From an uncultured delta proteobacterium (GTDB lineage Bacteria; Desulfobacterota; Desulfuromonadia; Desulfuromonadales; BM103): a DNA stretch of 64,000 nucleotides. The number at the start of each line of letters is the position of its first letter. Positions within the stretch are counted from its first letter, which is position 1. Below, one piece after another: positions 25,834 through 64,000 of this stretch. The notes under the pieces are model-generated. The model ran no database searches, was not told the origin of the DNA, and worked only from the letters and a program-made list of their open reading frames with translations. The stretch spans positions 90,237 through 154,236 of the forward strand of contig CAVQRZ010000006.1 of NCBI GenBank assembly GCA_963715335.1, read 5' to 3'. Both the position numbers and the translations under genes were made by a program.

Positions 25834-25899
25834 ATTCCCTGTATCTCCACGAACTCTCGGCAACCACCCCGTGACCGCGGGGGCAGCAACTCAAATCTC

Positions 25900-26075
25900 T
25901 CCAGACAGGTCTTCTGACTTCCGGTTCGTCCTACTGATCGCGCCTTCCCGACGGGTAGTGTCAGTGGCTTGTCTAGCGATGTTCGTCCCCGGTCACAGCG
26001 GCGGGCCCGTCCCGGATTTACACCGGGTTCCCTTTTGTCCGGCCTCGCAACGGATTGCGACACCGGTCAAGCCTT
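25900..26075 (-). ncRNA. Cobalamin (AdoCbl) riboswitch
   Basis: Minus strand AAAAGGGAACCCGGTGTAAATCCGGG...CCCGCCGCTGTGA...GCCACTG...GGGAAGG...AAGTCAGAAGACCTG (B12 box). Confidence 0.95.
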
Positions 26076-26298
26076 GCGGCATCTGAAAATGTATGGCGCA
26101 ACCTTACCCGTTGTCTCCGGACAAAGTCAAGAATCGCCTGTCTGAAACCGCCAACATTTATGTGGCCGTCGTCAGATGATGACAATTGTCTGCCCGACCG
26201 TCAAAAACTCGAATTAGTACTTGTGAAGCGTTAAAGATTGATTAACATTACCTGAGCAGCAGCTTGCTTAACTTAACAACCAGTCAAGGAGACTCAAG

Positions 26299-37698: not shown

Positions 37699-37779
37699 GG
37701 GAGTAGTTCGTAGCCTGGTGGCGCGCTCGGTCTTCAAAACCGATGGGGGGCGTATCCCGTCCCTGGTGGGTTCGATTCC
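37699..37779 (+). tRNA. selC: tRNA-Sec (TCA), 3'-truncated
   Basis: GGGAGTAG acceptor 5' strand, TCGGT-CTTCAAA-ACCGA anticodon arm, long variable arm, GTGGGTTCGATTCC. The rest of the 3' T-stem, the acceptor 3' strand (CTACTCCC) and GCCA are missing. Confidence 0.85.
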
Positions 37780-38824
37780 AAACCTCTACGCGGAGCCGCC
37801 ACCCCATTTCCTCGACGAAGAAGTCACACCTTACGAAAAGATGTTCGTCCGCAACAATGGCCTTGTGCCGGAAAAGGTCGACGCGGCGACCTGGACGCTG
37901 ACGATTGATGGCGAATCCGCCAAGAAATCGGTCTCGCTGTCGATCGACGAGTTGAAGAAGAAGTTCAAGGCCCACACCTACCATATCCAGCTCGAGTGCG
38001 GGGGTAACGGCCGCTCGGAATTCAACCCGCCCGCCAAGGGCAACCAGTGGCGCGTGGGTGCCATCTCCTGCGCAGAATGGACCGGCGCCCGGCTGCGCGA
38101 TGTTCTCGAGTATGCCGGCATCAAGGATGACGCCGTCTATATCGGCTATTATGGCGCGGACATCCACGTCAGCGGCGATCCGACAAAGGTCGTCATCTCT
38201 CGTGGGGTTCCAATGAGCAAGGCCCTGGAAGACGAATCGCTTATCGCCTGGGCGATGAACGGTGCCGAGATCCCGCTGCTGCACGGCTACCCATTGCGCC
38301 TGGTGACCGGCGGCTGGCCGGCCTCAACCAGCGGCAAATGGCTGAACCGCATTGCCATCCGCAACAAGGTCCACGACGGCCCGAAGATGACTGGCATGTC
38401 TTACCGCGTCCCGGCCTATCCGGTCGCGCCCGGCGCCAAAGTTCCGGAAGAGGACATGGCGATCATCGAGTCGATGCCGGTCAAATCCATCATCACGTCG
38501 CCGAAATCGGGAGCCCTTGCAAGCTTCGGCCAGGAGATCGAAGTGCGTGGCCATGCCTGGGCGGGAGACCTTGCCGTCAAGGCCGTGGACGTCTCCATTG
38601 ATTTCGGAGGGACCTGGCAACCATGCACCCTCAAGGCGCCGCGGAACCGGCTCGGCTGGCAGAACTGGTCGGCCAAGGTCAAATTCCCGCAGGCCGGCTA
38701 TTACGAGATATGGGCTCGTGCCACAGACGAGAAGGGCACGATGCAGCCGATGGTTGTCCCGGGTTGGAACCCGCGCGGCTACCTCAACAACGCTTGTCAT
38801 CGCGTCGCAACCAAAGTCGTGTGA
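37780..38824 (+). CDS. Sulfite oxidase family molybdoenzyme (SorA/SoxC-like), 5'-truncated
   Basis: AEPPPHFLD, FVRNNG, LECGGNGR (Mo-ligating Cys), HGYPLRL, SGKWL, WNPRGY. No Tat leader; the track start at 37718 lies inside the tRNA. Confidence 0.85.
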
Positions 38825-54617: not shown

Positions 54618-54963
54618 GCAAGTTACGGATACGCAGCAAGGTATGGCTGGAAGTCGATGGCAAGCCTTTTCTTGGCGATGGTCGTCACCGACTGCTTGCG
54701 GCAATACAACGTAACGGTTCAATCAGCTCCGCAGCTCGTGAGTTGAACTTGTCTTATCGCAAAGTCTGGTCTCAGTTGCAAGCCATGGAAGAGACGGCAC
54801 CCTTCTCCCTGCTGGAGCGCCGGGTCGGCGGCAAGGACGGCGGTGCAACCCATCTCACGCCTGGATCCTCGAACTCATGACACAGTTTGAGAAAATGCGC
54901 ACAAGCGTCAATGCTGAAGCAGACCGTTGCTTTCTTGAGTGCCGCGCCTCGGCAAAAAGGTGA
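54614..54963 (+). pseudogene. modE: ModE-type winged-helix regulator, frameshift near 54863
   Basis: GSISSAARELNLSYRKVW...GGKDGGATHLT; continues ILELMTQF... in another frame. Confidence 0.75.
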
Positions 54964-55786
54964 TGGTCATGCGTAGCGCTGTTTTTATCGCCCTGTTGCT
55001 CTTGGTTGCCGTTCCGACATGCGTCGGCGCAAGCCAACCTATTGTGATCTTTGCAGGTTCTGCATCGCAGCCACCGCTGCAAGAAGCTGTCGAAGCATTT
55101 AAGGCAAAGACCGGCATTCCGGTAACTCTTCACATGGGCGGCTCTGGAGCGATGCTCAGCCAGATACGGTTGACCGGACAGGGCGACCTATACATTCCGG
55201 GATCGCCAGACTTTATGACCAGGGCACGGGAGTCTGGTTGATTGTGGTGAGCCGGGATTCTCGCCTATCTGGTTCCAGCCATCATTGTTGCAGAGGGAAA
55301 TCCTCTGGGGATTAGAAGTTTACAGGATTTAGCAGGGTAGGTCTGCGGGTCGGCCTTGCCGAACCGGCAAGCGTCTGTGTTGGCCTCTACGCCGTTGAAA
55401 TCATCGAGCACAATGGGATGCTCGAACAAGTCCGTCCGAATCTGCGCGGGATGGTGGAGAGCTGCGCCAAAGCTGCTGCGATGATCCCCCTCAAGTTAGT
55501 CGATGCAGTGCTCGGTTGGCGAGAATTCGCCGCCTGGAATCCTGAAACGATGGATACCGTTCTGCTCGCTCCGCATGAAATCCCGCGTCTTGCCTACATC
55601 CCGGCCGGTAAATTGCGACACGCCAGGAACCCCGGTGGAGCTGAAGCGTTCATCGCCTTCCTGAAATCGGCCGAAGGATCGGCGATTTTCCAGAAGTGGG
55701 GCTATCTGACTGACGAAAACGCTGCACGCAAGTTTGCTCCTTCGGCGAAAATCGGTGGCACCTATACACTCCCGGAGGGATGGTGA
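54963..55786 (+). pseudogene. modA: Molybdate/tungstate-binding protein, several frameshifts at ~55230-55340
   Basis: FAGSAS, GGSGAMLSQI...GDLYIPGS, then broken frames until MLEQVRPN... Confidence 0.75.
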
Positions 55787-56571
55787 TGCTGCAGCGCGAC
55801 ACCGTCTTCAAGCTCAGCATGCTCCTGCCGCTGGCGATCCTTGCCGGTTATTTTCTGCTGCTGCTCCTCAGTCAGTCGACGTACTTCAATCCTGCGAGTT
55901 TCATCACACAGCTATCACAGCCCGACATCGTTTCGGCTATTACCCTCAGCCTGATTGCCGCAACGGCAAGCAGCGGAGTCGCAATCGCCCTGGCAATTCC
56001 ATCTGCTTACGCGCTGGCCCGCATCGACTTCCCCGGCAAACGCCTGATCGATACTTTTATTGATCTGCCTATGGTTTTGACACCGATCGCGCTCGGGACC
56101 CTGATTCTGATGTCGTGGAATACGGCATTCGGCAGAATGCTCACCGGTTTCGGGCTGACCCTGCCCTTTACCATGGCCGGCGTCATCGTCGCCCAATTCA
56201 CTGTTGTCGTCGCCATCAGCGTACGTATGCTCAAGGCAACCTTCGAACAGGTCAACCCGCGACAGGAGCAGGTCGCCCGACTGCTCGGCTGCTCGGCCTT
56301 CGGCAGCTTTTTTTATGTAACCCTGCCTCTGGCCAAACGTGGCATTCTCGCCGCAATTATCCTGACCTGGGCCCGCGCCGTTGGTGAATTCGGGGCGACT
56401 GTCATGGTCGCAGGCACTGCCAAGGGACAAACGGCCACGCTGCCGAGCAGCATCTATCTTGCCATGTCGATGGCCGACCTGCCGAGGACCGTCACCCTGG
56501 TCATCATTCTGATCGGGATCTCCCTGCTGGTCCTCTTCGGGGTCCGTATGCTGTCGGAGAGAGCCCAATGA
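55780..56571 (+). CDS. modB: Molybdate ABC permease
   Basis: DLPMVLTP, WARAVGEFGAT. Confidence 0.88.
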   Translation: MVMLQRDTVFKLSMLLPLAILAGYFLLLLLSQSTYFNPASFITQLSQPDIVSAITLSLIAATASSGVAIALAIPSAYALARIDFPGKRLIDTFIDLPMVLTPIALGTLILMSWNTAFGRMLTGFGLTLPFTMAGVIVAQFTVVVAISVRMLKATFEQVNPRQEQVARLLGCSAFGSFFYVTLPLAKRGILAAIILTWARAVGEFGATVMVAGTAKGQTATLPSSIYLAMSMADLPRTVTLVIILIGISLLVLFGVRMLSERAQ

Positions 56572-57655
56572 TCAGGGTCGAACAATTGACCGCTGAACGG
56601 GGGGATTTCTGCCTCGGTCCTGTTGACCTGACGCTGAACGAGGGCTCCTACCTGACCATTCTCGGTCCATCGGGAGCTGGAAAAACCATTTTTCTGGAGA
56701 CCTGCATGGGGCTACTCGCCCCCAGTTCCGGGCGGATTTGGCTCAACGATCGAGATGCCACAAATCTGGCTCCTGAGGACAGGCATATCTCGTACCTCCC
56801 CCAGGACCTCACCCTTTTTCCGCACCTGAGCGCCCGGGACAACATGATGTTCGGGGCAAAACACCGCAAACTGGAAACGGCCAGGTCAAATCAAGGCTCG
56901 ATGACCTCGTTGAATTGCTTGATCTTAAAGCCATTATCGATCGCGATGACGTGACGACTTTATCCGGGGGAGAGAAACAACGGGTTGCCCTTGCCCGAGC
57001 CCTTCTGCCCGGCCCTCAACTGCTGTTTCTTGATGAACCTTTTTCTGCTCTTGATGCCAACATCAAGCGACTCTTGCAGGTCAAGTTGCGGGAGATCAAC
57101 AAACAGCTGGGGGTGACCATTCTGCATGTGACCCACGACCAGGAAGAGGCGTTCATGCTTGGCGAAAAAATTGCCGTCATGATCGATGGACAGTTTCGAC
57201 AAATTGGCGAACGGGACGAGATCTATTATCAGCCTGGCACACTTGAGGTCGCACGCTTTCTGCGCAACCAGAACATCTTCGATCTGGAAATCGAGGAGAT
57301 CCTGCCGGATGGTTCGTTGTCTCTCGGCAACAACCCGAGGTTAATCGCCCCCGGCTTTGCAGAGGCCGCACCCGGCACGAGGGTCGCTGTCGGAATCCGT
57401 TCTGAAGAAGTTGTTATCATCCGGCCGAACAAACCGATCGGCCCGGAGCTTCAGGAGAACCTGTTCCATGCGACAGTGGCCGATATCCTCGTTTTCGGCG
57501 GGACCCAGACGCTTTGTGTCAAACTGAACGGCAGTGAGACAACGGTCGATGTCGAGTTGCCGAATTGTGCCATGCGGGATCTTGGGTACTCGATTGGCGA
57601 CACCTTGCAAGTATGCTTGCGCAAGAGAAGCCTTTGGACCATACCGTTGAATTGA
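56568..57655 (+). pseudogene. modC: Molybdate ABC ATPase, frameshift near 56890
   Basis: GPSGAGKT in ORF 56568..56954; LSGGEKQR/LDEPF in ORF 56915..57655. Confidence 0.8.
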
Positions 57656-57676: not shown

Positions 57677-58864
57677 ATGATCAGTTACGATGAGGCTCTG
57701 CAACGGGTTGTCGAGTCGGTATCGCCGATACATGCCGTTGAAATTCCCCTGCAGGAAGCTGCCGGGCTGGTTCTCGCCGCATCCGCGACGGCCCGCTGGA
57801 AGATGCCCCCGTACGACAACTCCGCCATGGATGGCTACGCTATCGGCTCTCCGACGGAGGATATTGAGTCGGGACTTCCTGATCATTGGCGCCTCCTATG
57901 CCGGGCATCCCTTTTCAGGCAGTGTCAACCCTGGTGAAGCCGTTCGCATAACAACCGGTGCCGTCCTGCCTGCCGGAGCAACCACTGTCATTCCAATTGA
58001 AGATGTCGAGGAAAACAGCGGTCAGATCCTTCTCAAGGTGCAGCCGGAAGCAGGGCAGAATGTACGCTATGCAGGAGAAGAATACCGTTCTGGCGAAGTC
58101 CTGGTTGAACCAGGGACAACCTTGCGAGCCGGCGAAATTGCCCTGCTCGCAAGTGCCGGGGTCGAAAACGTCAGTGTTTATCCCCGCCCGCGCGTCGCCG
58201 TGATTTCAACCGGGGATGAACTGGTGGAGCTTGGTCAGGCGCCCGGGCCAGGACAGATCATTAACTCAAACTTGCATTTCCTCAAAACACGCTTGGACGA
58301 ATGTGGCTGTATTCCAATCTGCCTGGGAATTGGAGGAGATGAACAGCAGACGCTTGACCAACTCATCGATCAGGCGCTTGACGCCGACATCATCATCACA
58401 ACAGGTGGTGTTTCAGTCGGTGAAAAAGACCATGTTCAGGCGACCCTGCAAAACCGCAATTTTGAAAAAATCTTCTGGAAAGTTGCCATTAAACCTGGCA
58501 AGCCTTTGCTCTTCGGTAAGGTCGATGACAAACCGTTTTTCGGGCTGCCGGGAAACCCTGCCGCCACGGCAGCGACCTTTGAACTGTTCGTCAAACCGGC
58601 GCTCAAAAGACTTGCCGGGCATGTCGACGTTTTGCCCGAGAAACGCATGGCGACCTTGACGCATGAAGTTAAAGGTGGCGGAAAACGTCAAGCCTTTCTG
58701 TGGTGTACGCTGAACTGGGTCAACGCGGCGTATCAGGTCACCGCATCGCAGTGGCAGGGGTCGGGACAGAACCGCTGTCTTACAGCCAAGAATGCCATGC
58801 TGCCCGTCCCGACAGACCTCAAATCATTATCCCCGGGGAACAGGTCGAGGTTCTTTTGATCTGA
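57677..58864 (+). pseudogene. moeA: Molybdopterin molybdotransferase, frameshifts near 57875 and 58835
   Basis: PPYDNSAMDGYA in one frame; RITTGA, STGDEL, GGVSVG, GLPGNP in the next; last residues EQVEVLLI in a third. Confidence 0.82.
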
Positions 58865-59101
58865 AGAAGCATCACGACATGAAAACCCTTTGGGAGCCGC
58901 ATTTAGCACAGCCGTTGTCATAGTCGAGGGATAAACCACAGCGATTTACGTTGAAATTTGCACCACAATTTGTTACACAAACATGGCTCACAATGCGTCT
59001 GCAGCAACTCCTTGCAAACGTAAATTCTGAGCACTTGGAGACAGATGGCGAGAGGCGAGAGGCCTCCATCAACTCCACCAACTCTCTCGTTGAGACATGG
59101 C

Positions 59102-59374
59102 ATGTTGAACCCCAAACAACATAAAGCCTACTGCGATTTCTATGACTCTGTCCGTGATACGGAGCATCTCGATTCCCGCACTGCGGCCATGATCGGACTG
59201 GCGGCAGCCATGGCCCGGGAGTGCCAGCCATGAATCGAGCACTACCTTGGCGTGGCCAGGGAGCAGAAAATCACAGACCAGGAGATCGGCGCCATCCAGG
59301 GGATCGTCATGGCGGTCTCGGCCGGCAAGATCAACGCCCTGATGCGCGAAGCCACCTCTCCCTCGCGGGACTGA
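59102..59374 (+). CDS. AhpD/carboxymuconolactone decarboxylase-like selenoprotein (CxxU)
   Basis: MLNPKQ...IGLAAAMARECQP-UGA-IEHYLGVAREQKITDQEI...; SECIS-like hairpin 11 nt after the UGA. Confidence 0.8.
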
Positions 59375-59419
59375 TCCATACCCTGCAATTTCCAACGGCA
59401 ATCTCTTCGGAGGTGATCC

Positions 59420-60822
<1,403 letters not shown>

Positions 60823-60835
60823 AACATTAATTTTT

Positions 60836-60950
60836 AACGCAAAGGCGCAAAGACGCGGAGAGAAAACCTAACAACATAGGCTCCTAATAGTTTTTGATTT
60901 TTAACAATATATTATTTTTTTCTTCCTTTGCGACTTCGCGTCTTTGCGTT
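60836..60950. repeat. Inverted octamer (NCGCAAAG) repeat element, copy 2
   Basis: ACGCAAAG-GCGCAAAG-ACGCGGAG ... CTTTGCGA-CTTCGCGT-CTTTGCGT around an AT-rich spacer. Confidence 0.75.
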
Positions 60951-60989
60951 TAATTGATTTTGAGATTTTGATTCAGACAGGTTTCAATT

Positions 60990-62906
60990 ATGAGCAACTC
61001 AAACCGCTATCACATCATCGGCACAGCCGGACACGTTGACCATGGCAAGACGGTCCTGATCAACAAGCTCACCGGCATCAATACCGACCGCCTCAAGGAA
61101 GAGCAGGAGCGCGGCATTTCGATCGACCTGGGTTTTGCACCCTTCAAGCTGGCCGACGGCAGCATGGTCGGCGTGGTCGACGTGCCTGGCCATGAGAAGT
61201 TCATCCACAACATGCTCGCTGGCATCGGCGGCATCGACCTGGTCCTGCTGGTCGTAGACGTCAACGAGGGAGTCATGCCGCAAACCAGGGAGCACCTGCA
61301 GATCCTGCACCTGCTGCAAATCCCGCGTGGCATCCTGGTCCTGACCAAATGCGACCTGGCCGAAGAAGACTGGATCGATATCGTCGAAGAGGAAGTTCGC
61401 GAGGCCCTGGCCGGGACCTTCCTGGCTGACGCGCCCTGTTGCCGGGTTTCGGCGATCAGGGGTGACGGGATCGACAACCTGCAGCAGACCATCCAGGGGA
61501 TCCTGAAAGAGCTGCCGCCACGAGACGAGGACGGGCCGACCCGCCTGCCGATCGACCGGCACTTCACGATCAGCGGGTTCGGCACCGTGGTCACCGGCAC
61601 CCTGCTTTCAGGGCGCATCAAGGTCGGCGATACCGTCGAAGTCATGCCCCCCGGGGAGACAGTGCGGGTCCGTGAAGTCCAGGTCCACGGCGAAAAAGCC
61701 GAGGTTGCCAGGGCGGGACAGCGCGTCGCCCTGAATCTGGCCGGACTGGAACGGAGCGACCTGGTCCGCGGCGCAGTGGTCGCCACACCGGGCTTCTTCA
61801 CCATGACGGAACGTTTCGACGCCCGCATCAACCTGCTCGCGGAAGCTCCGCGCCCGCTCAAGTTCCGCGACCCGGTCCACCTGCACATGGGGACCGCCAA
61901 GGTGACCGCCAGGGTTGCCCTGCTCGATCGTGACGAAATGAAGCCTGGTGAAAGCGTGCTGGCGCAGATCCACCTCGACAACCCGCTGGTCGCGCATCGC
62001 CAGGATCGCTTTATCATCCGCTCCTATTCACCGATGACCACGATTGGCGGCGGCCAGATTATCGACCCGTCGCCGAAGAAGCACAAACGCTTCCGCGACG
62101 AAGTCATGCAGGCGCTGAAAGAGCTTGAGTCTGGAGAAGGCTCGTTTATCGTCCAGAAGCTTGCCGAACTCGGCTGCGTCAAGCTCAAGGAACTGGAACA
62201 GACCTCGGGGCTGGGCCGCGAGCGCATCTCTGCCTTGCTCGACAGCCTCTCTGCGGCCGACCAGATCCGCCGGATCGGTGATCAGTGGGTCACATCGGAA
62301 ACCGCACGGGCCTGGCAGCGGGCCCTGGTTGAGGTGGTGGACAATCATCACCGTGATTACGCCCTGCAGCCCGGCATGCCGCACGCAACCCTGAAAGCCG
62401 CGTTGCCGGCCAAGGTCGCCCCGAAGGCCTTTGAGGAGCTTCTGTCGGAACTGGTTAAAGATGGTCAACTGGCCCAGCGGGGGGAATGGATCGCGCGCGC
62501 TGATTTTTCACCGAAACCGACAGAAATGCAGGAGCAGCTCCTGAAAAACCTGGAGAAGGTCTACCGGGATGCGGGCGTGGAGGCAAAAGGCCGGGTCGAT
62601 ATGCTGGCCCTGGCCAGGACTCCTGAGAACCAGATCGACTCACTGCTCGCGTTCCTCTTTGCCAACGGCACGCTGATCCGCCTCAACGAAGATTCGTTCA
62701 TGCACAAAGAGGCCTACCAGAGGGCGTTGAACGCTCTCAAGGAACACTTTTCCGGCAACGAGACCCTGACCCTGGCAGAGTTTCGTGACCGGATCGGCAG
62801 CGCCCGCAAACAGACCCAGGCGATTCTGGAGCTGTTCGACAGCCTGAAGTACACCATGCGCAAAGGCGACGAGCGGGTTGCCTGGCAATTACCGAAAGAC
62901 CAGTAG
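60990..62906 (+). CDS. selB: Selenocysteine-specific elongation factor
   Basis: [31 protein letters not shown]-terminal winged helices (FRDRIGSARK). Confidence 0.97.
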   Translation: MSNSNRYHIIGTAGHVDHGKTVLINKLTGINTDRLKEEQERGISIDLGFAPFKLADGSMVGVVDVPGHEKFIHNMLAGIGGIDLVLLVVDVNEGVMPQTREHLQILHLLQIPRGILVLTKCDLAEEDWIDIVEEEVREALAGTFLADAPCCRVSAIRGDGIDNLQQTIQGILKELPPRDEDGPTRLPIDRHFTISGFGTVVTGTLLSGRIKVGDTVEVMPPGETVRVREVQVHGEKAEVARAGQRVALNLAGLERSDLVRGAVVATPGFFTMTERFDARINLLAEAPRPLKFRDPVHLHMGTAKVTARVALLDRDEMKPGESVLAQIHLDNPLVAHRQDRFIIRSYSPMTTIGGGQIIDPSPKKHKRFRDEVMQALKELESGEGSFIVQKLAELGCVKLKELEQTSGLGRERISALLDSLSAADQIRRIGDQWVTSETARAWQRALVEVVDNHHRDYALQPGMPHATLKAALPAKVAPKAFEELLSELVKDGQLAQRGEWIARADFSPKPTEMQEQLLKNLEKVYRDAGVEAKGRVDMLALARTPENQIDSLLAFLFANGTLIRLNEDSFMHKEAYQRALNALKEHFSGNETLTLAEFRDRIGSARKQTQAILELFDSLKYTMRKGDERVAWQLPKDQ

Positions 62907-62983: not shown

Positions 62984-64000
62984 ATGAGCGTGAAGCTATC
63001 ACACCTGTCCAAAACCAGCGGTTGAGCCGCCAAGATGGCCCCCGGGCCATTGGCGCAGGTGCTGCGCCAGCTGCCGACCGTTGCGGACCCAAACCTCCTG
63101 ACCGCCGCGATCCCCTTTGCCGATGCCGGGGTCTACCGGATCTCGGAGGACTGTGCGCTGGTGCAGTCGGTGGACTTCTTTACGCCGATCGTCGACGATC
63201 CGCGCAGCTATGGCCGGATTGCCGCGGCCAACGCGCTCTCTGACGTTTACGCCATGGGCGGTCGGCCGCTGACGGTCATGAACCTGGTCGGCTTCCCTGC
63301 CTGCCTGGAGCATGAGGTGCTGGTCGAAATCCTCAAGGGCGGGGCTGAGAAGGTCCGGGAAGCCGGTGCGGTGATCGTCGGCGGACACACCGTCGAAGAT
63401 GATGAGCCGAAGTACGGCCTGGCCGTGACCGGCCTGGTCGACCCGGCCAAGCTGGTCACCACGGCCGGCGCCCAACCAGGGGATCTGCTGGTCCTGACCA
63501 AGCCGCTCGGCACCGGCATCCTGGCAACCGCGTTAAAAGGTGAAGTGATCTGTGAAGAGCAGATGGCAGACGCCATCCGCAACATGGAGACGCTGAACAA
63601 AACAGCCTCGGAGATCATGCTGCAGGTCGGCGTCAACGCCTGCACCGACATCACCGGCTTCGGCCTGCTCGGCCATGCTCTGGAACTCGCCGAGGCCAGC
63701 AAAATCGGCCTTGAAATCGACGCTTCAGCCCTGCACATCTACCCGCAGGTCATGGAATTGGCCGCGATCGGTCTGGTCCCGGTCGGCAGCTACCGCAACC
63801 GCGAACACTACCTGCCGAACGTCACCAATCGCGAGCACCTCGCCCCGGAGATCGTCGATATCCTCGCCGATCCGCAGACCTCGGGGGGCCTGTTGATCGT
63901 GGTGTCGGCAGAGAAACTCGAGCAACTCACTACGCGACTCGAAGCAGCCGGTTGCGACGCTTTCGAGATTGGCCGTGTGACTTCAAATCATCCTGGACAA
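62984..64000 (+). CDS. selD: Selenide, water dikinase (selenoprotein; runs off window)
   Basis: MSVKLSHLSKTSG-UGA(63023)-AAKMAP..., DAGVY, VDFFTPIVDDP, ANALSDVYAMGG, TDITGFGLLGH, DPQTSGGLL. Confidence 0.96.

Follow-up and report, generated by a model that had tools for sequence, protein, structure and literature searches.

A predicted CxxU selenoprotein of the CMD fold directly upstream of selA in an uncultured member of the Desulfuromonadales

Introduction

What does a small open reading frame (ORF) with an in-frame TGA contribute to the cell when it stands at the head of the selenocysteine (Sec) genes? This question is raised by a 64,000-nt stretch of genome from an uncultured delta proteobacterium (hereafter the window), in which a plus-strand ORF (59102-59374) opens with an ATG at 59102, meets a TGA at 59231-59233 and closes with a TGA at 59372-59374, and in which read-through of the internal TGA gives a CMD-family (PF02627) product of 90 residues. 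The ATG of selA follows at 59420, 45 nt past the stop of this CMD gene, with selB and selD further downstream. A preliminary description of the locus had placed the ORF, the TGA as the second Cys of a CxxC motif, a hairpin 11 nt downstream of it and the 45-nt gap to selA, and all of these positions proved to be right.

CMD-like selenoproteins with a CxxU motif are a class catalogued since 2005: CMD domain-containing members are tabulated in PMC1088965, PMC2398784 and PMC13188914, and AhpD-like selenoproteins also appear in PMC1794560 and PMC1976440. The preliminary description had remarked that AhpD-like selenoproteins were predicted before; published tables list CMD-like CxxU selenoproteins of PF02627. 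As described there, the CMD-like selenoprotein or "AhpD-like 2" (PMC1088965, PMC2398784, PMC13188914) shares with the window gene the PF02627 domain, the CxxU motif, an in-gene bSECIS element and Cys homologues, a likeness that refers to the descriptions and not to representative sequences, whereas the window protein carries the pattern C-x-P-U-x3-Y and is covered by no NCBIfam model at its cut-off. A placement before selA or Hsp33 does not feature in the consulted parts of these accounts, and a literature search by title and abstract opening found no account of such a gene before selA or Hsp33, although BSepDB or supplements may list the subfamily.

Results

Predicted Sec decoding at the in-frame UGA

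The internal TGA completes a Cys-Gln-Pro-TGA stretch (59222-59233, plus strand), which would encode a C41-Q-P-U44 redox motif, and behind it lies a putative bacterial SECIS hairpin (59245-59261, plus strand) with a 7-bp stem, a 3-nt loop whose first nucleotide, 59252, is a G lying 18 nt past the UGA, and a minimum free energy (MFE) of -11.2 kcal/mol. These values fall within all four bSECIS criteria given in PMC13188914 (loop of 3-9 nt, stem of 4-16 bp, G in the first two loop positions at 16-37 nt from the UGA, MFE of at most -7.5), so that the SECIS-like hairpin of the preliminary description passes the rule, but what lifts it above chance is its conservation and not the fold itself. The same simple rule is passed by 16% of 1500 random TGAs in the genome, the stability of the hairpin alone is not significant (z between 0.29 and -1.92, according to which stretch is folded), and the window holds no Rfam SECIS match at the gathering score. 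Across 23 sequences, synonymous divergence drops to 0.058 in the hairpin codons compared with 0.46-0.56 elsewhere, and a 39-sequence alignment spanning the phylum has compensatory changes at four of six pairs, with a covariation score reached by none of 500 shuffles or slid registers, a figure that is inflated by kinship. Covariation is weak when only the 25 distinct close sequences are compared, with one compensatory pair and 23 of 500 shuffles scoring equally high. The hairpin is absent from all three Cys-type genes (L069, L080, L099).

A profile search found the CMD gene in 67 of the 206 genomes of the order, and the in-frame TGA is kept by 66 of the 69 matches, in 65 of the 67 genomes; a Cys gene, a TTA and a fragment stopping short of the site make up the non-TGA cases. 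The TTA (Leu) replaces the Sec codon in genome G600 (L082:1597-1599) while the hairpin there is intact, which may reflect an error or a recent loss. The dN/dS of 23 close sequences is 0.127 for codons 2-43, before the UGA, and 0.151 for codons 55-82, after it. Among the outcomes that would refute a selenoprotein, the preliminary description had named homologues without Cys or Sec at this position and a similarity ending at the UGA. None of its refuting outcomes was seen: Cys homologues were found, similarity crosses the UGA and the relatives retain the TGA. Of 27 matches in a first protein search, 24 covered only half of the query. The best 150 of 698 protein matches to an HMM include 96 with CxxC and 36 fragments, of which 25 start just after and 11 stop just before the U position.

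Because both the in-frame UGA and the hairpin behind it are conserved, it is very likely that a real protein is made from this ORF, namely a small redox protein with selenium from the class already catalogued, and on these comparative grounds we consider it next to certain that the UGA at 59231-59233 is read as Sec in this CMD-gene family. A true stop, be it in a pseudogene or through a sequencing error, would accord with indel errors near the CMD gene in the window contig (in selA and moeA), but it is hardly credible in view of the TGA shared by nearly all of these genomes, the purifying selection beyond it and the covarying hairpin.

A CMD fold without the AhpD proton relay

The read-through protein scores 38.6 bits against PF02627 (cut-off 23), and its AlphaFold model (pLDDT 85) consists of four helices, with the CxxU placed between helices 25-38 and 42-54 in a helix-turn-helix core like that of AhpD. 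Foldseek returned zero matches at an E-value of 0.001; its best rows were Pseudomonas aeruginosa RclX (7y4r; TM 0.71, weak at E 4e-3) and then 3bey, the Methanothermobacter protein O27018, and profile-to-sequence comparison matched the two at 7e-7 and 1.5e-8, respectively. These closest solved structures are likewise small CxxC proteins of the CMD fold, but they carry Cys only and share about 23% identity with the window protein. RclX, on which HOCl/HOSCN protection depends (PMC7950407), keeps four of the five AhpD catalytic residues, whereas the window protein is without the relay His and Glu.

In Mycobacterium tuberculosis AhpD the catalytic residues are Glu118, Cys130, His132, Cys133 and His137, the last being a relay His described as invariant among AhpD-like proteins (PMC3141380). 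With the relay positions defined as the His four residues past the second Cys and the Glu twelve residues ahead of the first, the window protein has Tyr48 in place of His137, without exception across the 16 aligned rows, and the hydrophobic Ala29 in place of Glu118. Among the 32 closest Cys homologues the His137 position is Tyr in 19 and His in three and the Glu118 position is Glu in two, and 64 more distant Cys homologues mostly have Glu and His. The signature of the subfamily is C-x-P-U-x3-Y.

The AhpD core domain model TIGR00778 gave no match at an E-value of 0.001, and no NCBIfam model reached its cut-off for the window protein. The best NCBIfam matches, MduS (NF045649; E 4e-13, 49 bits against a cut-off of 380) and ArsM/AhpD (NF041537; E 2e-12, 46 against 510), arise through the C-terminal AhpD-like CxxU domain of these selenoproteins, which have the hairpin in the same register as the window gene; however, there the domain is fused to or follows a methyltransferase domain and forms a separate clade (support 96/91). 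Membership in these two families was ruled out for the window protein, which stands alone with 90 aa, has no N-terminal methyltransferase domain and scores below both cut-offs. The GSU3128 family, named "distant AhpD homolog" (NF041047), likewise comprises small stand-alone CxxU selenoproteins of the CMD fold in Desulfuromonadia and was ruled out as well, at 25.1 bits against a cut-off of 110. A true GSU3128 member, scoring 154.6 bits, is encoded elsewhere in this genome (G000:C1:44532-44723; L123:1507-1758) by a second gene for a CMD-fold selenoprotein, which likewise has a hairpin. The MduS and ArsM matches had brought up the idea of an arsenic link, which was rejected as a general explanation, since just one of the stand-alone distant loci scanned lies in a cluster of ArsR, methyltransferase and SBF-transporter genes; apart from it, the neighbours of the distant homologues are mixed and share no common theme. 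That locus (L065, genome G199) has the order ArsR, methyltransferase, CMD-Sec, SBF transporter and resembles an arsenic-resistance operon.

Judged by these comparisons, the predicted protein is a CMD-like CxxU protein and not a canonical AhpD. The term AhpD-like, as used in the preliminary description, is true of its fold only, because the Glu118/His137 relay on which the AhpD mechanism draws is missing. An assignment as a canonical alkylhydroperoxidase of the AhpD type, or as an AhpC reductase, in which Sec takes the place of the second catalytic Cys could point to the helix-turn-helix bearing the CxxU and to AhpD-core proteins among the structural neighbours; with an invariant Tyr48, a hydrophobic residue at the Glu118 position and no TIGR00778 match, we regard this assignment as very unlikely.

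Genomic setting across relatives

The closest named relatives are mostly Desulfuromonadales or unclassified deltaproteobacterial MAGs. In the window's own family (f1; f22, f12, f4, f16 and f9 denote the other families compared) selA comes immediately after the CMD gene in each of the 27 genomes that have this gene, the window's own included, and the same applies to six of six f22 genomes, where one copy is frameshifted and one has a TTA. The spacer to selA (59375-59419, plus strand, 45 nt in the window and containing the selA Shine-Dalgarno sequence GGAGG at 59409-59413) measures 45 nt in 19 of 23 loci, compared with a selA-selB spacing of -4 to more than 300 nt among relatives. The upstream neighbours of the gene vary freely while the link to selA is unbroken in f1 and f22, a pattern that could mean functional coupling.

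Outside these two families, adjacency to selA was found in none of 45 other genomes holding both genes (28 from f12, two from f4, one from f16, two from f9 and 12 from elsewhere in the phylum), and a further two f12 genomes had no match to selA. In the f12 family, 30 genomes have the CMD gene; 13 of these loci were examined, and in 12 of them the gene immediately precedes that of the redox-switched chaperone Hsp33. The conserved order at these loci (L088-L098, L101, L025) is ABC-2 permease, CxxU CMD gene, Hsp33, in which Hsp33 may be a redox partner. Within f1, 13 genomes gave no CMD-gene match, 11 of them with selA present, and in two of nine inspected f1 genomes lacking the gene, selC lies directly before selA. 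Since the 17 selA-adjacent sequences group in one clade (support 94/92, just under the starring threshold of the tree tool; 64 rows, 90 columns), the adjacency to selA probably goes back to a single relocation event in one lineage; the Hsp33 neighbourhood is also confined to a single lineage and would equally represent one event.

The CMD gene had been described as the first gene of the sel run, which is correct for this assembly but not for its congeners, since all three congeners inspected have an intact selC (tRNA-Sec gene) 28-29 nt upstream of the CMD gene, and in two of them a YedF ORF is called directly before selC. The congener order is thus yedF-selC-CMD-selA-selB-selD, and selC lies within 60 nt upstream of the CMD gene in five of 25 loci of relatives and in three of five f22 loci.

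The selC and selA region of the assembly

In the window, yedF (TIGR03527; 37110-37691, plus strand) is displaced relative to the congeners and lies about 21 kb from the CMD gene, and selC next to it (37699-37779, plus strand) consists of the first 81 nt only, followed by SorA-like coding sequence. Within 37699-37790, the tRNA-Sec, without its last 15 nt, is joined to a SorA-like sulfite dehydrogenase sequence lacking its N-terminus, and a second selC copy, on contig C13, reaches the contig end at the same base. The block of about 21 kb between yedF-selC and the CMD gene (about 37780-59100) holds, as assigned from Pfam matches and from reading the ORFs, a nitrate reductase operon, nitrate transporters, and molybdenum cofactor and molybdate transport genes. 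A degenerate copy of the tRNA-Sec 3' end in front of the CMD gene (59065-59080, plus strand) is weak, with five of 17 mismatches and 60 of 2000 random windows as good. On contig C40, a 17-nt selC 3' remnant 29 nt before the ATG has two mismatches, a quality reached by none of 2000 random windows, which suggests that the block is an island inserted at selC; the join of selC to the SorA-like sequence is a probable misjoin at an integration site. Other relatives carry different genes at the position of the block.

The genome assembly has 6.87% contamination and duplicate contigs, and no public sequencing run is a close match to this strain (best share 0.26). The window copy of selA (59420-60822, plus strand) is frameshifted, with a net +2 nt relative to its relatives near 59505-59560 in a patch of mismatches against the C40 copy, which is open for 466 codons. 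Of the sel genes, selB (60990-62906, plus strand) and selD are present, selA is frameshifted on contig C6 and intact on C40, and both selC copies end at nt 81; the frameshift in selA and the shortened selC are probably artefacts of the assembly. The genes for moeA (57677-58859), a molybdate-binding protein (54939-55786) and an ABC ATPase (56568-57655) appear to be split across frames, which fits indel errors. Between selA and selB, an AT-rich spacer (60835-60955) lies between apparent inverted repeats, and its length varies widely among relatives. The selD gene (62984-64000, plus strand), which runs past the end of the window, is itself a predicted selenoprotein gene with an in-frame TGA at 63023-63025 (U14, in G-U-A-A-K) and a hairpin behind it, and the standard ORF call starts too late, at 63035. 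The window also contains a cobalamin riboswitch (RF00174, 103.5 bits) on the minus strand at 25887-26091.

RNA structure and transcripts between the CMD gene and selA

The preliminary description had further considered a selenium-sensing leader whose read-through affects selA. On paper, the 3' end of the ORF can pair with the selA Shine-Dalgarno sequence. Across 23 loci, however, the opening energy was independent of where the ribosome stops, with a median change of -0.16 kcal/mol and more than 1.5 kcal/mol in only four loci, and the local hairpin over the selA start is ordinary, since 22-28% of 250 control starts are equally closed. This test gave no support to a translation-coupled leader of the structural type, in which RNA structure would do the sensing.

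In Escherichia coli, a SECIS-like repressor in the selAB 5'-UTR likewise places a SelB-binding hairpin upstream of selA, and the selAB control described for it is negative (PMC13449736). As presented in that account, the E. coli element is untranslated and lies 3 nt from the Shine-Dalgarno sequence, whereas the window hairpin lies inside a coding gene at a distance of 147 nt and therefore cannot occlude the selA Shine-Dalgarno sequence in the way seen in E. coli.

The region 58700-59600 yielded no sigma-70 promoter and no plus-strand terminator. Four RNA-library runs were available, all from relatives and with 59512-59613 outside their coverage; among the contigs listed, one run has a contig that spans the gene and continues well into selA (X19, 59108-59499), and a second run reaches 26 nt into selA.

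Discussion

Taken together, our analysis favours a general redox role for the CMD gene. We estimate a probability of roughly 0.6 that the CxxU CMD-fold protein would form a thiol/selenol redox couple serving general redox upkeep, and that its placement before selA results from one relocation in one lineage and not from a step in Sec synthesis. Starting from what was observed, namely the conserved UGA, the covarying hairpin, purifying selection on both sides and the Cys homologues, a chemistry can be proposed conditionally. As known for bacterial Sec decoding, SelB and Sec-tRNA would bind the hairpin and insert Sec44; judging from the fold and the motif, the Sec44 selenolate would then attack an oxidant or a substrate disulfide, Cys41 would resolve the Sec44 intermediate as a selenenyl-sulfide, and a cellular reductant would reset the Cys41/Sec44 pair. 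The absence of the AhpD His/Glu relay would suit an exchange of the disulfide type, or else a selenolate able to act without a base. Weighing against this reading are the unbroken link to selA in f1 and f22, a C-rich patch found specifically in f1, the confinement of the Hsp33 neighbourhood to one lineage, the mixed neighbours of distant homologues, the TTA in G600 and, in this assembly, the incomplete selC and frameshifted selA.

The position next to selA had also been taken to suggest a role in selenium handling, in which, jointly with YedF, the CxxU protein would serve SelD by reducing or carrying selenium, for instance in selenotrisulfide or perselenide form. The gene order of the sel operon gives this idea some weight, as the congeners have yedF-selC-CMD-selA-selB-selD, selC is found close upstream at part of the loci, and the link to selA is never broken in either family. 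Nevertheless, all 45 genomes outside the selA-adjacent clade lack the adjacency, eleven f1 genomes keep selA without the CMD gene, two f1 genomes without it have selC directly before selA, and the adjacency belongs to one clade and so probably to one event; moreover, a selenium supplier that itself depends on Sec would be expected to fail under selenium scarcity. The restriction of the selA adjacency to one clade, its absence elsewhere, the Hsp33 neighbourhood in f12 and the gene-less f1 genomes hence favour a general redox role over selenium handling, which we consider unlikely although it retains weak support from the operon order.

Somewhat less probable still is a dual function, in which the CMD gene doubles as a selenium sensor by acting as a Rho-dependent attenuator of selA-selB-selD, the version in which the proposed selenium-sensing leader could persist. 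Leader attenuators of the tnaC type depend on Rho and present a C-rich, G-poor, loosely folded site that is uncovered upon early termination of translation. Here, without Sec-tRNA, ribosomes would end translation at the UGA, leaving about 186 nt ahead of selA untranslated, Rho would load on a C-rich patch and transcription would end; with read-through, the patch would be shielded and selA-selB-selD made, in a positive feedback. A candidate Rho-loading site is a C-rich, G-poor patch over the last codons and the spacer (59348-59401, plus strand), with an unpaired probability of 0.54 versus 0.40. The mean C-over-G skew, taken across 54 nt around the natural stop, is 0.42 in 24 f1 loci, -0.24 for f12 (13 loci) and -0.10 for 14 other loci; the window gene has 0.35, a value reached by two of 94 comparable junctions in the genome, and 22 of 23 loci from seven genera have a skew of 0.33 or more. 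The skew holds although spacer identity between genera is only 0.37, with 0.27 expected from composition, fourfold sites have G in 12 of 110 cases within the last seven codons versus 189 of 756 elsewhere, and the stops of selA and selB in the same operons are without skew. The largely constant 45-nt spacer, as against the loose selA-selB spacing, a Rho gene encoded in the genome and the contig of a relative running from the CMD gene into selA are also in line with an attenuator. Yet the skew test was made post hoc, after the anti-Shine-Dalgarno model had failed, and on kindred sequences, so that its significance is overstated; five f22 loci precede selA and have a skew of 0.00 with spacers mostly of about 30 nt, and the first 45 nt of the ORF are equally skewed (0.42-0.45). 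Furthermore, purifying selection on the protein is strong and elsewhere it works apart from selA, a contig that covers two genes is no proof of a single transcript, and the E. coli control, as reported, is negative and not positive (PMC13449736). A literature search by title and abstract opening found no account of Rho polarity at a Sec codon. If it were true, Rho polarity would represent a new form of bacterial selenium sensing, with transcription of the Sec machinery confined to times when this machinery already works, and a positive-feedback switch opposite in sign to the SelB repression in E. coli.

The CMD gene belongs to a widespread subfamily, present in about a third of the genomes of the order and, at stricter scope, in 23 of 401 genomes sampled from the phylum, which gene callers split at the UGA and which no NCBIfam model covers at its cut-off. 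According to the published accounts consulted, the function of the predicted CMD-like CxxU selenoproteins is not established. A CMD fold without the AhpD proton relay offers a small and tractable test of what Sec does in this fold, and its conserved positions, one ahead of selA and one ahead of Hsp33, provide two concrete handles on the function of the protein.
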